From assembly GCA_020619395.1 (NCBI GenBank), contig GCA_020619395.1_4860.1: 64,000 nucleotides of DNA, one strand, 5' to 3'. The number at the start of each line of letters is the position of its first letter. Position 1 is the first letter of the stretch. Positions 3,431 through 59,016 of this stretch are shown one piece after another. The position numbers and the translations under genes were made by a program. The DNA comes from a phage. The notes under the pieces are model-generated. The model did not search any database and was not told the origin of the DNA. It was given only the letters and a program-made list of their open reading frames with translations.

Positions 3431-4363
3431 TTAAACCAGACCGTATTTTTTCTCCAGACGTTCACGTTTGTACTTGAGTTCCATCAAGCGCTTTTCGTGT
3501 GCTTCGATGAGTTTCTCAATGTGCACGTCCCCTTCACCGGCAGCCTGTTGTTTCTTGTACAACAGAATACGCAGCTCAGTCGCTTTCGCGGCTTCCACGC
3601 ACTCGTCATAACGATCCATTTGCCATTCTGCAATATTCAGACGCACGCGGTAGACAATTGACAGCGGGAACGGAACGGAGGACATACCCAGTGGATCAGT
3701 GGTGTTCGAACCGAACTGCTGAACCAATTGGCTATATGTCTCTTCGTCAAACACCGCTTCAGGTATCTCAGCGTAGTCTGCTTTCAGTTTGGTAATGGGG
3801 GTTGCCAGGACGCGCACCGCAATACAGAAAGACGTCTTACGGGTTTGCAGATACTGAAGGTCTTTCGGACCGATTCCCTTCACTGCAATGTTCGAGTCTT
3901 GTACAGCGGCAATCTCTTCGGCCGTGATGTAGTTAATCAGGGTGCTAGCGTAACCGACGAAGAATTCGATCATATCCAGCAACTGCAACACGGTTTGTTT
4001 GTTGAACGTTAGAGATGAAGTCACCAACGTCTTCCCGATGTCGCGGTCGATACACTGCTCCAGGAAAGGTCGCAGCGCCTGTACGTTCTGCATAGACGCG
4101 ATGACGTACTCCAGCATACTTGCGTTACGTAACCCTTTAACTTCCAAACCGGAGCTATGCAGGTACTTAACGATTTCAGTAGAAAGGTCTGCAACAGGCT
4201 TCGCTTTAAATGGCTTACCCTGGACACTTCCCACCAGTTCCTGGAGGTTCTGGAACTGTGGCTCTAACGCAGCAATCGAGTCGCAGTTAGATGACAGTTG
4301 GTTTTTTAAGTTCGTGGCTTCGAAGCTCGGCAGCAACATCGCCAACATATTCGGAATCGGCAT
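3431..4363 (-). CDS. hypothetical protein
   Basis: ORF-track 3431..4408 trimmed to the internal Met (ATG at 4363) that has an upstream AAGGGGA Shine-Dalgarno-like tract and removes the overlap with 4374..5492. Confidence 0.5.
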   Translation of the reverse strand: MPIPNMLAMLLPSFEATNLKNQLSSNCDSIAALEPQFQNLQELVGSVQGKPFKAKPVADLSTEIVKYLHSSGLEVKGLRNASMLEYVIASMQNVQALRPFLEQCIDRDIGKTLVTSSLTFNKQTVLQLLDMIEFFVGYASTLINYITAEEIAAVQDSNIAVKGIGPKDLQYLQTRKTSFCIAVRVLATPITKLKADYAEIPEAVFDEETYSQLVQQFGSNTTDPLGMSSVPFPLSIVYRVRLNIAEWQMDRYDECVEAAKATELRILLYKKQQAAGEGDVHIEKLIEAHEKRLMELKYKRERLEKKYGLV

Positions 4364-4373
4364 TCTTTTCCCC

Positions 4374-5492
4374 TTACAGTACCGGATTCGCGCCGACGCG
4401 ATAGGCATCGATGATTTTGTTTACATCGCCGCTACCGGACTTCGCCTTGCTAAAGTCTGATTTGTCGAGTTCTTGAGACCCGGTCTGACCACGCGTATAA
4501 ATGGTTACACGGTTCCAGGTCTGGTCGACAACCACGTAGTAAACAGTCAGGGTGTCTTTGAACACACGCTGGCGGATATTGTAATCATCGAAGTCACCGC
4601 CCAGCTGAGCAGTCAGATCGTCGATAGTTTCTTGAGAAACCACCATAACCGAAGACGCGTTGTTGATGGATGGGCTCAGCGTCAGCAGGCCAGACAGCCA
4701 GTTGGCGTTTTTCTTTTCCATCATCTTACGGTAATAACCGGACTTATCACGGAAGCGGTTCTTACGGTATTCTTCAATGAGGTCATTACACAGCGCGATA
4801 TCTTTCGCGTAGCTGAGAGAACCGACCTTCGCACGCAGCACACGTTCCCAGAAGGTTTTGGTTTGATCGCTGAACGCAATGAGCGTTTTCATTTCGTCGG
4901 TCGGCAGAGACTTCACATCAAGACGCAGACGCATCGGCAGCTCGACTTTATTACCGTCACGTTCGAAGGTAACAGAGAACACTTTACCGTTGGACAGACC
5001 TTCTTGATCATGCAGGAGCTTCAGCGTGTTGTTCGGCAGCACAGAACCTGCGGACGATTCAGTCGCTACTTTGTTATCGGATTTCTGGCGACGGGATTCA
5101 CCGACCGCAAGCCCGATTTTATCGTATGACGGCAGCGTGTGACGGGAGGACTCGCCGATTGCGAAAGACGCTAAGCGAGAACCCGAACGTGCAGCCGCAT
5201 CGAGGGCATTACGACGGGTGCTAACCTGGTCAAGCGTACCAAGGATATCAACCTCAGGAACACCCACCAGAATTGAGATGGCGGTAAGTTGGTTGCCCGC
5301 GAGCAGGATTTGGATTTTCTCCAGAATACCTGGCAGGTAATCTAAGCCCAACAGACTTTGTTCAACCAGCGTGGTGTGCTCGTTGTACAGCACAGAGTTG
5401 AATTCTTCCGTCGATTCCGCCCGCTGGCGAAGCAGCATGGGAAACTTAGAAAGAAAGGAGACGAGCGATGTCTCAAATGTTTTTTCTGCCAT
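4374..5492 (-). CDS. hypothetical protein
   Basis: 372-aa ORF; divergent from the + strand gene at 5515 with only a 22-bp gap. Confidence 0.6.
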   Translation of the reverse strand: MAEKTFETSLVSFLSKFPMLLRQRAESTEEFNSVLYNEHTTLVEQSLLGLDYLPGILEKIQILLAGNQLTAISILVGVPEVDILGTLDQVSTRRNALDAAARSGSRLASFAIGESSRHTLPSYDKIGLAVGESRRQKSDNKVATESSAGSVLPNNTLKLLHDQEGLSNGKVFSVTFERDGNKVELPMRLRLDVKSLPTDEMKTLIAFSDQTKTFWERVLRAKVGSLSYAKDIALCNDLIEEYRKNRFRDKSGYYRKMMEKKNANWLSGLLTLSPSINNASSVMVVSQETIDDLTAQLGGDFDDYNIRQRVFKDTLTVYYVVVDQTWNRVTIYTRGQTGSQELDKSDFSKAKSGSGDVNKIIDAYRVGANPVL

Positions 5493-5514
5493 TTTTAACT
5501 AAACTCCGGAGTTA

Positions 5515-6777
5515 ATGATGAGTAACGAGACCGATAAGAACGATCCGGGGTATGACCCGAATACCGACTACGACAATTCGTATCAAAACCCGAATAATAT
5601 CGATGCAGTACCATCGGTCGCCGACTACTTTGACCGTCGACTGTCCGATGCGAAACCCACCACGGCGTACAACGTTAATGATGAGTTATCGGGTTGGAAT
5701 GACCGTATCCGTCTTACGTTAGGTTTGGGTCTGGCTGCGCAGCGTGTGACCAACCCCTACATGGGGTTCAACCATATGATGGCGTCGAACCCGACGCCTG
5801 TTAACCGTGAGTACGGTGGCCTAACCTTCATTACCCGCCCTGACTTCAACTTGTGCTTTGACAACATTGCCAACTCGCGCAAGATGTCGAACATGGCTTC
5901 TCAGCCGAAATCGTCACTCGACTATTCCATTCTGGCAGCGTTAGACCCAGATTTTGAATTGGGGTTCTCTGATTCACCGATGGAAGATGGGCGAAGAAAG
6001 AACCGTTTGGGCACGCCATTCATGAAGGACATTATGTTTGACAATCTTCAGGCATTCATACCATTGCTGAGTACGCAGATGCTGAGCCTCTCGGGGATGC
6101 CTGACCAGTCTGTCGATAACTGGATGTCTGAAGAAGGTTTAATGCGCGAACAGTGGGGTATGGTTGACTCCACACATGAAATCAATAACCAGTACAGTAT
6201 GTCGATGTCGCTGAACAACCCATACGGCAACCCTATCATGCGAATGATGGGCGTGTGGCTGGAGTATATGTCCGGCATTAAGATGGGTAAGTTCAAACCG
6301 AAGATGCGTAACTCCATCCAACGCCGCATTGACTACCAGTCGAGGATGTACGGGTTTAAATACGACGCGCTCGGAAACATCACTCGTTTCTGGACAGCGT
6401 GTGTTTGTTGGCCGATGAACGATAACGCCGGTCAAATGGCGAATGTCGATAACACCAAGCCTCAATTAAATGACGACACCACAATTAACCTCAACTGGCA
6501 ATGTATCGGGGCGCGCTTCGATGACCCATTGTACATGGAGATGTTCAACTTGACGGTGTCTATGTTTAACCCGGATATGATGCCGCAACCAGGGAGTGTT
6601 GCAGCGGGTAACTTTATCCCGATTGCTGAAGACCAGCTTGTGCCGATTGCACCACAGCTACTACCGCTGTTCAACTACTACGGCTATCCGCACATCGACT
6701 CCCTGCGTCGTAAACTGACCTGGTATGTTTATCAGGCAGATTACCAATTCATCCTTAAACGAGCGGGCTTACTGTAA
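5515..6777 (+). CDS. hypothetical protein
   Basis: 420-aa ORF; its stop overlaps the start of the next gene (TAATG at 6775-6779). Confidence 0.6.
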   Translation: MMSNETDKNDPGYDPNTDYDNSYQNPNNIDAVPSVADYFDRRLSDAKPTTAYNVNDELSGWNDRIRLTLGLGLAAQRVTNPYMGFNHMMASNPTPVNREYGGLTFITRPDFNLCFDNIANSRKMSNMASQPKSSLDYSILAALDPDFELGFSDSPMEDGRRKNRLGTPFMKDIMFDNLQAFIPLLSTQMLSLSGMPDQSVDNWMSEEGLMREQWGMVDSTHEINNQYSMSMSLNNPYGNPIMRMMGVWLEYMSGIKMGKFKPKMRNSIQRRIDYQSRMYGFKYDALGNITRFWTACVCWPMNDNAGQMANVDNTKPQLNDDTTINLNWQCIGARFDDPLYMEMFNLTVSMFNPDMMPQPGSVAAGNFIPIAEDQLVPIAPQLLPLFNYYGYPHIDSLRRKLTWYVYQADYQFILKRAGLL

Positions 6778-54137: not shown

Positions 54138-54517
54138 GTTGCTTCCTTCTTACTACTATTGCTGCTTCTATTGGTAGTCCACGACATATCCCTCGTGGGT
54201 GGGTTCGGTGTGTAACCGAATAAGTTTTTCTGTTCCCAGGGCAACGCACCAGGCTTAATTGATTTAGTTGGCAAACCAGGAACAGAAAAGGGGTATACAG
54301 ACTAGGGCGCGAGGTGGCTCTGGATGGATGCGTAAGAAAAACCCAAACGGCCCTGGCCTGTAAGTTGGCCCGAAGTCACCGTGTCGGAGGACAGCCCATG
54401 CAGGTAGGCGGCAATGGACACGGTGACCGCGGAAGTGGTTCGTGTTACCCTTGACCCGTGTGTGGATACGCGTCTTAATTCGAATGCCTTCGGGATAAGG
54501 GTAACACAAATGGGGCG

Positions 54518-54661
54518 AGCAAACGGACGGATTCGAACCGTCGAAATATCCGATTATGAGTCGGGTGTTAATTCCTCTAACTTCGCTGCTCTTGCTTTGA
54601 CCGGACTCGAACCGGCGACCTTCCTCGAAGAGGTTGCTCTACCTACCTGAGCTACAAAGCC
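54518..54661 (-). ncRNA. two tandem degenerate tRNA-like elements
   Basis: Element 1 (about 54518-54595): D-arm GTTA/TAAC, anticodon-like arm CCCGA-CTCATAA-TCGGA (CAU loop), T-arm GACGG-TTCGAAT-CCGTC, acceptor pairing imperfect. Element 2 (54593-54661): acceptor GGCTTTG/CAAAGC, D-arm GCTC/GAGC, T-arm GCCGG-TTCGAGT-CCGGT, but anticodon arm and variable region too short. Confidence 0.3.
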
Positions 54662-55706
54662 ATTGTTCATGGCATCATGATAGTTACACTCAACGTACCA
54701 CACCCCTACTGGTTTCCGTTTCGGGGGACTTAACCAGACACCATACGTCCAAGGTCGACGCTTAGGTGTGTTATCAGTTGCCTGACTGGAAATCTCTTAC
54801 GAGACGTCTACGTTGAACCGGCAAGCCGGCCATGATGTGAAGATGGGGGAACGCCCAGGCTTCCGCCCAGTCGAGTGAGGTACGAATCCTTCACTCCTGT
54901 CATCACTGATGGTGACAGCGCTCCCATTGTAAGGTGCCGGTGCATCCCGGCGTGTGTTAGTGCACTCAGCTCCCTCGGGCTTATCTGCGGCAACACGTTG
55001 CCCGGAGCACCGACATATACCACAGTAACCTCGTAAAGTCACTCTGGTATTGTTCGTTGCATACTACTAAGTTATCACGTAAACGATTTCATCACTTCCA
55101 TAAATAATAATTAACCTAAATTCATTTCTGAATGCGGGTGATGGACTTCTTCTTCTGAGCCTGGCCGCAAGGTCAGGTCTTAGCGCCTCCAAGCACCACC
55201 CGCTATCACGTACATTCGTGGCGTACCGGCCGTATGAGGTACCGCGCCTACGGTGACACACAGTCACCCTAACACTGGGAACTCAATCCCATTCGGTTAT
55301 CAGATTGTGGATTTACAGGCGTAGCGTAGCGGCTTAATGGGCCGGTGCTTGCCTGTCCCCTAGGGACGGTTGTCGTGGAGACGCCAGTCTGTAAGTGGGG
55401 CCCTTGCGGGAAAACCCATCGCCTGTAAACCAAACATGATTGAATACCCAGAACCGGACGTTGGAAATCAACATCCTGATGTACTGGAGTATTTCATGCA
55501 TAAACGTGTCTCGTATCGAATGAGGTTATGACCGGTCAGATACCCAGCATCCTGTACAAGCGACCTGGTGCTTTGTGTACCTGGCTGCTACGGATTTATT
55601 GGTCTACCGTAGGTCTGAGCTGCTACCGGCTCATGCGGGACATCAACCCGCACAATCTGAGTAAGTATCATGGCTCGAATAGGGTTAGTGGGCCGAAGCC
55701 CACTGT

Positions 55707-55961
55707 TTAGCCAGCATTGAACGATTCATGAACGACGGTCCCAGCAGGATAGTGCGTAGTGCCGATAAGAGTAACGGTCAGGGTAAGCCCTTCATCCCAG
55801 CGCTCTTTCGGTAACCAGCGGCAGTCCATCCAATGACCACAGTCGGGAGGAATTGCACACGCAGCTTGCTCCGTAGGAGCCGCCACGATTATGGAATCAA
55901 ATTCATCATACCCGATATCGTCAGTTCGTTCTAGCAAGTACAAATTCATGTTGTTCTCCAA
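55707..55961 (-). CDS. small hypothetical protein carrying one copy of the repeated NLY...VVAA..EQAA module
   Basis: 84-aa ORF with GGAG Shine-Dalgarno upstream; N-terminus MNLYLLERTDDIGYDEFDSIIVAAPTEQAA resembles two segments of 56671..57246. Confidence 0.45.
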   Translation of the reverse strand: MENNMNLYLLERTDDIGYDEFDSIIVAAPTEQAACAIPPDCGHWMDCRWLPKERWDEGLTLTVTLIGTTHYPAGTVVHESFNAG

Positions 55962-56013
55962 CAGTTGACAAATCTGTGTCTTCTGTGTTGAACCTGAATT
56001 CGTTGGCTAAATG

Positions 56014-56089
56014 TGGCGGGGGCACGAGGTTTCGAACCTCGAACCTTCGGTTTTGGAGACCGGTGCGCTACCAATTGCGCCATACCCCC
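56014..56089 (-). tRNA. tRNA-Trp (anticodon CCA)
   Basis: Hand-folded 76-nt cloverleaf: acceptor GGGGGTA/TGCCCCC, U8, D-arm GCGC-AATTGGTA-GCGC, anticodon arm CCGGT-CTCCAAA-ACCGA (U33, CCA, A37), variable AGGTT, T-arm CGAGG-TTCGAAA-CCTCG, discriminator G, encoded CCA. Confidence 0.85.
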
Positions 56090-56182
56090 AGAATTCTTTA
56101 AACGTGTTTATACGGATGCGCTACCCCGTTATCGCAGGCGATTGATGGGGTCAAGCTTGCGTGCTTCTGACTCCCGCATGAT

Positions 56183-56674
56183 TCACCTCCGTAATTCGTA
56201 AGTGCTAATCTCACCACCGGTGTAGATATCGCATTCAGACGCAATCTCAATAGCACGAACCGCACTCGCGCCCATCTTCATCGCACCCAACGCATACTCG
56301 TAACCGCTTCCGGTTGCCAGAGGTGGTGTGGCTTCACTCCACCACAACGTCACGTCGTCTTCACGTTTTCCGCCGACTATCGCTTTTCCTGAGGCCAAAA
56401 GCATCAGGAAAGTAAAATCCATCTTCGCAGGTAACTGCGAGCTTTGTGTTAACCCCTTGTAGCCGGGTCTCAAGCGGACCGTTTCCAGCAGGGCCAACTG
56501 TCCTGTGATGTCACCGCTTACTCCGAACGCCACAATCCGTTCACCAGTAATCCACCACTCCTCGTCAGGAGGACAGACGAATAACTTCTGGGTATTCAGG
56601 TTGCAGATATTCGACCCACGGGTTAACTGGCCGTCAGCAGCTAAGACTTTTCCATCGAACGCTATCGTCGTCAT
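56183..56674 (-). CDS. HslV-like N-terminal-threonine peptidase (proteasome beta-type fold)
   Basis: Start at ATG 56674 (GAGGAAGG Shine-Dalgarno; ATGA overlap with the upstream stop) gives MTTIAFDGKVLAADGQLT... (cf. E. coli HslV [24 protein letters not shown]), plus GSGYEYALGAM (cf. GSGGPYAQAAA) and DIYTGGEISTYEL (cf. DICIYTNHFHTIEEL); recalled from the E. coli sequence. Confidence 0.65.
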   Translation of the reverse strand: MTTIAFDGKVLAADGQLTRGSNICNLNTQKLFVCPPDEEWWITGERIVAFGVSGDITGQLALLETVRLRPGYKGLTQSSQLPAKMDFTFLMLLASGKAIVGGKREDDVTLWWSEATPPLATGSGYEYALGAMKMGASAVRAIEIASECDIYTGGEISTYELRR

Positions 56675-57246
56675 TGGGCCACCTTCCTCGGTGTGTACTC
56701 GAATGTCGTTTCCGTCAGGTAATCCTGGCGCATCCAAGTCAGCTCCTGGCCTTGCTCACACTTGATGTTCGTAACCAAACCGGCTTCAAGTGGTAGCTCA
56801 CAGACCGAAACGATTCCGGGTTTATCACCGTCCCAATGTGCGAATGCCGCCTCGGGGGTTGTTGCCCCGACGATGATTCCGGCGTCGACATAGTCTTCGG
56901 TAGCGACGTCGCTGTAAACCAGGTACAGCTTGATGATCGACGGTTGCTTGGCTTGGTAGCCGAAGTACACTCTGGTTTTACCCGTGGTAAGATTCCAGGT
57001 GTGTCTGGCGGATTCGGAAACAAATTCCAAACCGGGATGGGAATAATCATCCCAACGGCCTTGCTTCAGAACCACCCCAGGCGTAACCATCGGGGTAGAC
57101 ACAGCGCCGTCGTAGCAGCACGCAACCGCTGGACGCTCTGCGCTAACCGGCCAGAAGGATTTGGCCTGCTCCTCGTTTTCGGCTAAGACAACCAAAACCG
57201 ATTCAGGCATCTCGTTTCGGTAAAACCCGACGCGATACAAGTTCAT
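56671..57246 (-). CDS. hypothetical protein with internally duplicated NLY/KLY...VV-A..EEQA/PEAA..W module
   Basis: 191-aa ORF with GGAG Shine-Dalgarno upstream; segments MNLYRVGFYRNEMPESVLVVLAENEEQAKSFW and KLYLVYSDVATEDYVDAGIIVGATTPEAAFAHW are similar to each other and to 55707..55961. Confidence 0.5.
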   Translation of the reverse strand: MNLYRVGFYRNEMPESVLVVLAENEEQAKSFWPVSAERPAVACCYDGAVSTPMVTPGVVLKQGRWDDYSHPGLEFVSESARHTWNLTTGKTRVYFGYQAKQPSIIKLYLVYSDVATEDYVDAGIIVGATTPEAAFAHWDGDKPGIVSVCELPLEAGLVTNIKCEQGQELTWMRQDYLTETTFEYTPRKVAQ

Positions 57247-58164
57247 GGTTTAATTCTCCGTTTGGTTTATCATACCTCACGCAGAATCTGTAAATTTTAA
57301 TCAGCCAGGTACCGTCGTTTCTCAACGGGAGTACCCACCCCTCTCGTCTATTCCGAGCCGTCAAGATCCGATCACCCCACTTTGGAGTTATCCCCCAAGT
57401 CTGCGGTTCTACACGCAGACCCCTTTTCGACGCAACGCCGAATTCGAATCAGTTTTGGCCCGACGCCAGAGCGGAATCAGCGATAACTATCGGAGGTAAG
57501 TTCAACGACGTCTCTCCGCTGCCCAGTCCTCTGGCGCTGCCACGGTCAACTCGGATTTTGTCATGGGTGCGCAGTCGACTTTCTCGACACTCTCGCAAAC
57601 CGAACTACGCCCGACGTAGCACCGTCGGCAGGTCGGTTATTTACCGAGTACCTGAATGGGTGGTGATTGTCGGAATCCCCGCCGACGCTCACCGGTTCTG
57701 TTCCACGGCGAAAGTTTTCCAGAACATAATAAATCACGCAGTGTTAGATTGCGCTTTGTCGAAGACACCACGGTAGGTATTTTCGAAAAAGCGTCCTGGG
57801 TATCAGTCCCAGGACTTGGAGCCCTAGCGTGCAGGGTTTAAAAGTGATTGGACCATTGGCGCGGTCAATCGCTATTCGCATATAACAACAAACTCACGTA
57901 ATCAAAAAATTACCGGCTCGAGGCGTAGGCGTCCAGGAGCCGGTGAGTCACACAGCAGTGAGTCCCTCTGCGGGGATTTTCGTGGAGCTTGTCGTTGGAA
58001 TAAAAATCCGTCCCCGGACGGGTTGGTGTTGTGGGTCGACTTGTCAGAGTCTACCGACCAGGGAGGCGACCACCGAAGCTATGGGTTTTGGACATCGAGT
58101 GGTGGTCTGAACACACGATAGGGAAACCACGTAAAAAATACACAGGGTACCCAAACTAGGACTT

Positions 58165-58600
58165 CCGTCCGATCACGATCTCTTAATAAGGATCACGCGC
58201 GCGCCTGCACGCGTTTTAAGATCTTAATATATTAATATATTTATTTATATAAATAATTATAATAATTAAATATAATACCTAAAGGTATTATTATATTTAA
58301 TATTATTATATATCTTTTAAAAGATCCTGGAGGATACGGGTGTGCGCACGCGCACGCGTATAAGGAAAGGGTCTTCGACCCGATCCACAGGATCAATCTA
58401 AAAAACAATCTAAGTGATTGTTTTAAAAAGAAATTTTGAGAATTAGATTAAATTATCCCCTAAGGGGGATTTTAGAGCGAGTTAAACAACCCAAAGAACT
58501 CGTAAGTAACCGACAGTGTGTGTCGGTTACAGAACGATCCAGTTTTCACCCAGACATGGCACGAAGTGCTACCCAACGTGTGATCGTCGTCGCCGGCCGC
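58165..58600. other. origin/unwinding-element-like region: AT-rich core flanked by alternating CG tracts, GATC cluster, direct repeats and palindromes
   Basis: About 110-bp core with over 90% A+T (58213-58320) between cacgcgcgcgcctgcacgcg and gtgtgcgcacgcgcacgcg; 9 GATC at 58171, 58177, 58191, 58220, 58323, 58382, 58391, 58536, 58582; caatcta direct repeats 58393 and 58406; palindromes 58454-58470 and 58506-58530. Confidence 0.3.
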
Positions 58601-58958
58601 GACCGTCGTCCCGGAACCGAAACGGGAATGGCACTCTCGCGCTCTCAGCGGCCCGCTGGCGCGATTTTCCGGTATGGGGAACCCAAGTGTACTGGGTCTG
58701 AGTTAAATCTCGTTCTAGCGCTTTCTAGAGCGTTTTTAATAACTGGTTAAAAAACATACAATCCTGAATCCCCATTCCCTGAATTTCCTCGCCCCGACAA
58801 AAATAAATTCTCTGTCTCGATACATAACCCCCTCTAAAACGCACGTAACCGACCCTAGAAAACGATAAACTGCCAAAAACGAGCTACCCTACGTCGATAC
58901 CACCTAATCGTTTTCTGATGCTTCCCAGACCCCTTTAACCGGTTGGTTAAAAAGTAAC

Positions 58959-59009
58959 CAAAAAAATAAAAAAAAATAAGATTGGCGTACTCCCCGAAGA
59001 GAGTACGCC
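58959..59009 (-). terminator. rho-independent terminator after CDS 59017..59571
   Basis: Hairpin 58984-59009 (ggcgtactc / cccgaaga / gagtacgcc) with a long + strand A-run 58959-58980. Confidence 0.6.
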
Positions 59010-59016
59010 TAGTGAC

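Follow-up and report, generated by a model that had tools for sequence, protein, structure and literature searches.

Two small genes that flank an HslV-like peptidase gene and a transfer RNA (tRNA) gene in a jumbo phage raise the questions of whether their products share ancestry and whether they serve the peptidase. They lie at positions 55,707–57,246 of a 64,000-nucleotide stretch of contig GCA_020619395.1_4860.1 (GenBank assembly GCA_020619395.1), the whole of which we refer to as the window, and all genes of the locus are on the minus strand, in the order gene A, gene B (the HslV-like gene), tRNA-Trp and gene C. The DNA is 99% identical to that of Salmonella phage 1252 throughout the studied region, and the phage is assigned to the SPN3US group of jumbo Salmonella phages, genus Seoulvirus. 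An initial annotation, read from the letters alone, had described a repeated module of ~30 amino acids, with two copies in A and one in C, and had suggested that the two proteins form a dedicated partner, adaptor or inhibitor family of the peptidase. Profile searches show that C is a canonical full-length member of PHROG 5444, a large and phage-restricted family whose members are acidic, consist of a single domain and measure ~66–100 amino acids, and that the described module is the N-terminal strand-strand-helix half of the PHROG 5444 domain. We lean, by no great distance, towards A being a diverged local paralog of C that has lost the family signatures. A dedicated role beside the peptidase, on the other hand, found no support in comparative genomics.

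Gene C (55707–55949, minus strand) encodes a protein whose residues 1–80 aligned to positions 1–82 of the 82-position PHROG 5444 profile (E = 1.1e-36), and this family, catalogued as being of "unknown function", was also matched by all 48 of the C homologs that we aligned. With a family hidden Markov model (HMM) built in this analysis, the stop-to-stop open reading frame (ORF) holding C scored 105 bits. C resembles PHROG 5444 in length, termini and motifs along a full-length match. The family consensus reads MNLYL-x8-YDxYDS-xVVAA-xxEExAR-xxHP-(variable insert with Trp)-VxVxLIGTT-x-GVIxASFNAG, and its signatures are present in C as the start MNLYL, the acidic loop YDEFDS before the second strand, and the end SFNAG. 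Across the 48 sequences, S76, F77, A79 and G80 were invariant, and M1–L5 (at least 90% conserved), Y14, D15 and D18 were nearly so, while 86 of 107 newly listed sequences ended in SFNAG or SYNAG and 78 of the 107 started with MNLYL. Database searches returned 65 C homologs and then, with the N-terminal profile, 571 clusters, nearly all of 73–79 amino acids and none of them named. Phages OBP, SA002, Kc263 and D3, the N4-like phage IME11, and Rhodococcus phage E3 encode full-length members. Acidity is strong in the family, the median isoelectric point being 4.3 and the median net charge −7. In SPN3US, gp264 (ACQ60_gp264) is the homolog of C, with a protein 100% identical to it, and tRNA-Trp lies between gp264 and gp001, as in the phage studied here.

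The small proteins flank the HslV-like gene and the tRNA as initially described, but the length of C needed correction. Its start is most likely the ATG at 55949, yielding 80 amino acids, because all homologs and GenBank annotations begin there with MNLY; the 84-amino-acid version, from a TTG at 55961, is unlikely for the same reason.

The segment of C that had been called a module corresponds to residues 1–38 (55836–55949, minus strand), which the family alignment and the secondary structure of the model delimit as the strand-strand-helix half of the protein. Partial tblastn matches covering C residues 1–24 or 1–40 had given the appearance of a free-standing unit with varying C-termini. However, all six of the matching sequences that we fetched proved to be full-length proteins ending in FNAG, and therefore the "module" is half of a domain and not a mobile unit of ~30 amino acids. 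The AlphaFold model of C was confident (predicted local distance difference test (pLDDT) 90.3, predicted template modelling score (pTM) 0.80), with predicted strands at residues 2–8, 16–24, 57–64 and 72–78 and predicted helices at 27–31 and 48–53. The modelled fold is thus a strand-strand-helix...strand-strand arrangement without a solved relative, and the best structural neighbour of the model was NE1680 (PDB 2hfq). The same fold appears in BFVD in many jumbo phages, at times as several paralogs per genome. The invariant C-terminal glycine had suggested a ubiquitin-like protein, which we ruled out on the fold, given that the C model is not a beta-grasp.

The initial annotation had not recognised the family, and this was borne out. 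Searches of Pfam (including with 48 family members), NCBIfam, PADLOC and PDB sequences gave no match above threshold for the C family, leaving PHROG 5444, a group with no Pfam or NCBIfam counterpart, as the only match. Our literature search on SPN3US gp264, SFNAG proteins, and HslV in SPN3US or jumbo phages found nothing on these genes.

Gene A (56671–57246, minus strand) is an ORF call of 191 amino acids. It is judged to be a real coding gene under purifying selection because its ratio of nonsynonymous to synonymous substitution rates (dN/dS) was 0.28 against phage EC001; the corresponding values were 0.07 for C and 0.12 for B. Most substitutions in A relative to EC001 fell in residues 47–105, between the two copies of the putative repeat. 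Homologs of A were confined to Seoulvirus-type phages, with identities of 84% or more, and an exhaustive phmmer search against 1.84 billion representatives returned no distant homologs other than two giant repeat proteins. We rejected these two as spurious, since their scores sum six to seven weak repeat matches and A has no match to a Pfam repeat domain. A matched neither PHROG 5444 nor any other PHROG, and scans of Pfam, NCBIfam and PADLOC gave no match above threshold. The gene is missing in SPN3US, SPLA3 and SEGD1, which keep both B and C. A and B overlap at the stop codon of the former and the start codon of the latter (ATGA, in the context CAATGA), and the deletion runs exactly from the ATGA of A to the ATGA of B, removing 568 bases (window 56675–57242; SPN3US locus 5172–5175) and placing B under the ribosome-binding site of A. 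Given this exact deletion in three phages, A is dispensable. A variant of 107 amino acids was also present on a single 1.6-kb metagenome contig, with an in-frame loss of residues 74–157 that joins ...SHPGL to VTNIKCEQ....

Is A then related to C? Comparison with the C-family profile by hhalign and HMMER gave matches within two sites of A, namely copy 1 at residues 1–38 (MNLYRVGFYRNEMPESVLVVLAENEEQAKSFWPVSAER; 57133–57246, minus strand) and copy 2 at residues 105–141 (IKLYLVYSDVATEDYVDAGIIVGATTPEAAFAHWDGD; 56824–56934, minus strand). In hhalign, residues 1–35 aligned to columns 5–41 of the C-family profile with P = 1.7e-4, and residues 105–137 aligned to the same columns with P = 2.5e-3. HMMER gave A 9.1 bits with the family model and 10.9 bits (p = 2.9e-5) with a model of 149 sequences, matching both sites in register (copy 1 over residues 17–37; copy 2 over residues 106–139 on profile positions 2–36), and none of 2000 shuffled sequences scored as high (maxima 6.3 and 7.4). 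A was also the top non-family match among 1200 ORFs of the window, 2617 ORFs of 17 other loci, and ~4000 six-frame ORFs of the full SPLA1a genome (~240 kb), with the next best non-family scores at 4.5–7.6 bits, and this best non-self match in the genome is located ~1 kb from C. Copy 1 begins with the first residues of A, MNLYR, while copy 2 is internal and begins IKLYL.

Pairwise comparisons were less telling. The second half of A matched C by BLASTP with 33% identity over 42 columns (E = 0.014; shuffle p ~0.013), the first half of A was not significantly similar to C in the shuffle test, and, among the weak tblastn matches of A in a set of fetched loci, two fell on C homologs, one in SPAsTU (E = 0.44) and one in AhC3_1 (E = 8). 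The literal residue pattern by which the module had been defined, supposedly with two copies in A and one in C, matched only the second site of A, at residues 106–138. The first site has no Asp and the wrong spacing, and C has TEQA in place of [EP]E[QA]A and 10 residues in place of 2–4 before the Trp. A relaxed motif, [NK]LY.[VIL]-x(8-16)-[VI][VI]xA-x(1-4)-[EP][EQA][QA]A, which was fitted after the fact, matched all three sites and otherwise only homologs of A or C in ~524,000 residues of six-frame ORFs. We conclude that the resemblance of A to C, as far as profiles can tell, is real but weak, and that what the two share lies in the N-terminal half of a larger domain. Given that A resembles only this half of PHROG 5444, twice and below threshold, and is without the defining features of the family, we did not file it as a member.

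The serious rival to paralogy is convergence on a short strand-strand-helix motif. The resemblance of A and C would then be convergent or due to chance, and A would be an unrelated, lineage-specific orphan that happens to carry a generic motif of strand, turn, strand and acidic-start helix twice. We regard this as possible, although clearly the less probable of the two, and several of our results weigh on its side and against common descent. Besides the marginal or non-significant pairwise comparisons and the literal pattern that fits only one of three sites, the hhalign probabilities were only 50% for copy 1 and 12% for copy 2, the two halves of A did not match each other significantly in hhalign (P = 0.29; global shuffle p ~0.03), and the genome-wide E-value of A was only ~0.1. 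The YDxYDS loop is absent from A, replaced by MPES without Asp in copy 1 and only partially represented by EDYVDAG in copy 2, and SFNAG is found neither at the ends of the units nor at the C-terminus of A itself (...PRKVAQ). The C-terminal halves of the A units aligned to C in conflicting registers, with either PGVVLKQG or GKTRVYFGYQAK opposite GTVVHESFNAG, and the global scores were unconvincing; therefore we dropped the extension of the alignment into these halves and make no claim about them. The model of A, built on a three-sequence alignment, reached a pLDDT of only 41 and was too poor for fold comparison, so that structure prediction, informative for C, was unusable for A. Its second half, untrustworthy at this pLDDT, contains strands at 104–112 and 122–126, a helix at 131–136, and strands at 144–152 and 158–162, in the element order of the family. 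Finally, the unrelated Pfam family DUF3906 (PF13046) matched the first 28 residues of A below threshold (E = 0.027; 15 bits against a gathering threshold of 25) and two members of the C family at E = 0.075 at best. This likeness concerns only the strand-strand-helix start, with the first 27 of 64 profile positions aligned, and such sub-threshold matches of A and family members to the same short motif make convergence possible.

Chance or convergence, however, accounts poorly for a profile score that no shuffled sequence and no other ORF of the window, the related genome or the other loci attained. It would also leave to coincidence that two separate sites of A match one region of the profile in register, that copy 1 matches from its first residue (MNLY) as family members do, and that the best match in the genome sits so close to C. 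We therefore consider, with modest confidence, that a single ancestral domain is a plausible source of all three sites. The paralogy suggested by the initial annotation thus survives in the in-register profile matches, the rank among non-self ORFs and the proximity to C, and is weakened by the marginal pairwise comparisons; profile-profile alignment of the single copies against the family was likewise favourable in its P values and weak in its probabilities.

Under the preferred reading, that A is a diverged paralog of C, a C-like gene would have been duplicated locally, and an internal duplication or fusion followed by heavy divergence would have produced A, confined to Seoulvirus and dispensable. 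A would have kept the strand-strand-helix signature twice and lost the acidic loop and the SFNAG end. The position of A and C on either side of the HslV-like gene would then reflect local duplication and inherited gene order, and not an arrangement built for the peptidase.

The gene between them, gene B (56183–56674, minus strand), encodes 163 amino acids of an HslV/proteasome-beta-like Ntn-hydrolase family protein, the counterpart of SPN3US gp001 (ACQ60_gp001, "peptidase HslV family"), and SPN3US differs from the phage studied here in the absence of gene A. B matched PHROG 1040, "peptidase HslV family", at E = 1.3e-37, but fell far short of the curated cutoffs of Pfam Proteasome (14.1 versus 22.4 bits), NCBIfam HslV (16.5 versus 157.75) and NCBIfam archaeal proteasome beta (20.1 versus 224), and matches to PDB sequences were weak. 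B starts with MTTIAFDG, as does its homolog in SPAsTU, and the Asesino homolog starts with MTTIAYDG. B shares the Met-Thr-Thr start of HslV, so that a Thr would be exposed after removal of the Met, an observation that concerns the presence of the residue only. Given the strong PHROG 1040 match and the missed Pfam and NCBIfam cutoffs, "HslV-like Ntn hydrolase" seems a fair label for B, and plain "HslV" is not demonstrated. In Erwinia phage RAY, an HslVU-family protein localises to the phage nucleus (bioRxiv 10.1101/2023.02.24.529968). Between B and C, ARAGORN called a tRNA-Trp (CCA) at 56014–56089 on the minus strand (Rfam tRNA model, 65.6 bits); SPAsTU and Erwinia phage Asesino have it in this position too. 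In Pseudomonas phage nickie (fetched locus 4001–6707) and in Asesino (fetched locus 1–1644), a tRNA gene and a TerB-like gene adjoin an HslV-like gene, which hints at a conserved accessory block of these three elements, in nickie without the C family.

A second alternative is that A and C are dedicated partners of this HslV-like peptidase, whether activators, adaptors or inhibitors, which we consider quite unlikely. HslU and proteasome activators dock by their C-terminal tails, and the strictly conserved extreme C-terminus SFNAG could dock on the peptidase ring in a similar way; however, the C model places SFNAG with high confidence within the last predicted strand (72–78) and not in a flexible tail. 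The overlap of the A stop and the B start, and hence translational coupling, also counts in favour of a partner, but stop/start overlaps are frequent in phage operons whatever the function, and SPN3US retains B despite the exact deletion of A. Annotations of this phage group show no HslU partner, and none was reported in the related phage pSal-SNUABM-04, which has HslV-like genes (PMC7823757). The order B–tRNA-Trp–C is kept between Seoulvirus and Erskinevirus although B is only 38–43% identical in this comparison (C, 57–64%), but these related genera, represented by Seoulvirus including the divergent SPAsTU and by Erskinevirus phage Asesino, are the only ones to share it.

Elsewhere, the C family is widespread without an HslV-like gene nearby. 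We found no such gene near the C-family member in seven independent metagenomic phage contexts, Pantoea phage Survivor or Aeromonas phage AhC3_1, and no peptidase in the annotated 1.3-kb stretches around the homologs of OBP, SA002, Kc263, D3, IME11 and E3. Conversely, no C- or A-like gene lay within 4 kb of four independent HslV-like loci (GXNNA8, nickie, Vibrio 424E50-1 and SeSz-2). Phage records with HslV-like genes numbered 472 versus 101 with C-like genes, the former, among the records listed, being mostly ~42-kb Salmonella phages and the latter mostly jumbo phages, and the majority of the records with HslV-like genes do not have the C family. A small gene beside the HslV-like gene of nickie, gp005, gave a 7.3-bit match and is not a family member. 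Given that the two families occur separately outside Seoulvirus and Erskinevirus, and that A has been lost in SPN3US, as in SPLA3 and SEGD1, while B stays, the idea of a dedicated peptidase partner, adaptor or inhibitor is not supported by these genomic comparisons.

What the family does instead can be approached through its size, charge and genomic context. From these, we infer that PHROG 5444 proteins most likely act alone, binding a conserved component of the host or the phage in the way that host-takeover or anti-defence proteins do. Their candidate binding site would be formed by a cluster of invariant polar residues (N2, Y4, Y14, D15, D18, S76 and N78) beside the paired N- and C-terminal strands. 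C-family genes sit in arrays of small early or accessory genes. Two considerations weigh against this proposal, namely that size, charge and context are all that it draws on, and that a binder engaged in an arms race would not usually be conserved as strongly as this family is, a degree of conservation that suits a small enzyme or a ligand-binding domain equally well. In Pantoea phage Survivor (fetched locus 2456–2731), a Tad2-like (Thoeris anti-defence 2) gene was observed directly upstream of the C-family member (PF11195, E = 4e-16).

More specific functions seem doubtful to us. It is improbable that the invariant paired termini and the acidic loop form a site that regulates or hijacks a self-compartmentalised protease of host or phage, such as HslV, or neutralises a conserved component of host defence or translation, with A as a tandem-domain derivative directed at the phage's own HslV-like enzyme, to which it is translationally coupled. 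Least probable of all is a role in translation or tRNA biology, for example in protecting or using phage tRNAs, which would explain the position of the family inside jumbo-phage tRNA clusters, its genes lying at most 500 bp from tRNA genes in eight jumbo-phage lineages (Seoulvirus, Erskinevirus, Survivor, AhC3_1, OBP, SA002, Kc263 and D3), but which is at odds with the strong acidity, unfavourable for RNA binding, and with the lack of a tRNA within 5–6 kb in six metagenomic phage contexts and of an annotated tRNA near the IME11 or E3 homologs, and shared ancestral gene order may explain the jumbo phages. The tRNA neighbours of C-family genes in these eight lineages were often tRNA-Asn and tRNA-Ser.

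The surroundings of the locus had features of their own. Downstream of C, two tRNA-like elements on the minus strand, at 54518–54589 and 54592–54661 of the window, reached the gathering score of the Rfam tRNA model (30.6 and 40.9 bits, respectively), and neither was called by ARAGORN; the SPN3US annotation has "tRNA-OTHER" at this place. In SPAsTU and Asesino, the C gene is followed downstream by a full tRNA array, and, given these arrays and the two tRNA-like elements, the ORF-poor gap at 54138–55706 resembles such an array in reduced or atypical form. Within the gap, ~258 bases (54666–54924) had no counterpart at the matching position of SPN3US. Upstream of A, 1.77 kb (57247–59016) contained no convincing ORF, and this gap includes a ~100-bp tract of almost pure A+T with nested palindromes (58218–58322; GC content 0.37 in 58100–58399). 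The gap is also where many GenBank records of phages of this group start, and it may have a regulatory, origin or packaging role. Among GenBank records LR535901–LR535921 (Salmonella phages SPFM...), ~12 appeared to have the part homologous to 55500–57500 cut into short scrambled blocks (25–31 BLAST pieces), resulting in nonsense proteins; this scrambling is probably an artefact of assembly or deposition.

These results do not overturn current understanding. C is a member of a catalogued but uncharacterised family, and nothing at the locus is categorically new; the useful outcomes are the definition of this family, the probable origin of A, and the failure to find a link to the peptidase. In annotation, the gp264-like genes that SPN3US-type phages carry can now be placed in PHROG 5444, and gene A can be marked as probably a double copy that has eroded. 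Neighbours of the A or C type should not be assumed to be cofactors of orphan phage HslV-like peptidases. PHROG 5444 merits a Pfam entry, since its members number in the hundreds, its termini are sharply conserved, and its fold is predicted with confidence and has no solved homolog. The family ranges across phages of enterobacteria, Pseudomonas, Aeromonas and Rhodococcus as well as N4-like phages, and given this wide range, its target is probably broadly conserved, which makes the family a reasonable candidate for functional screens.

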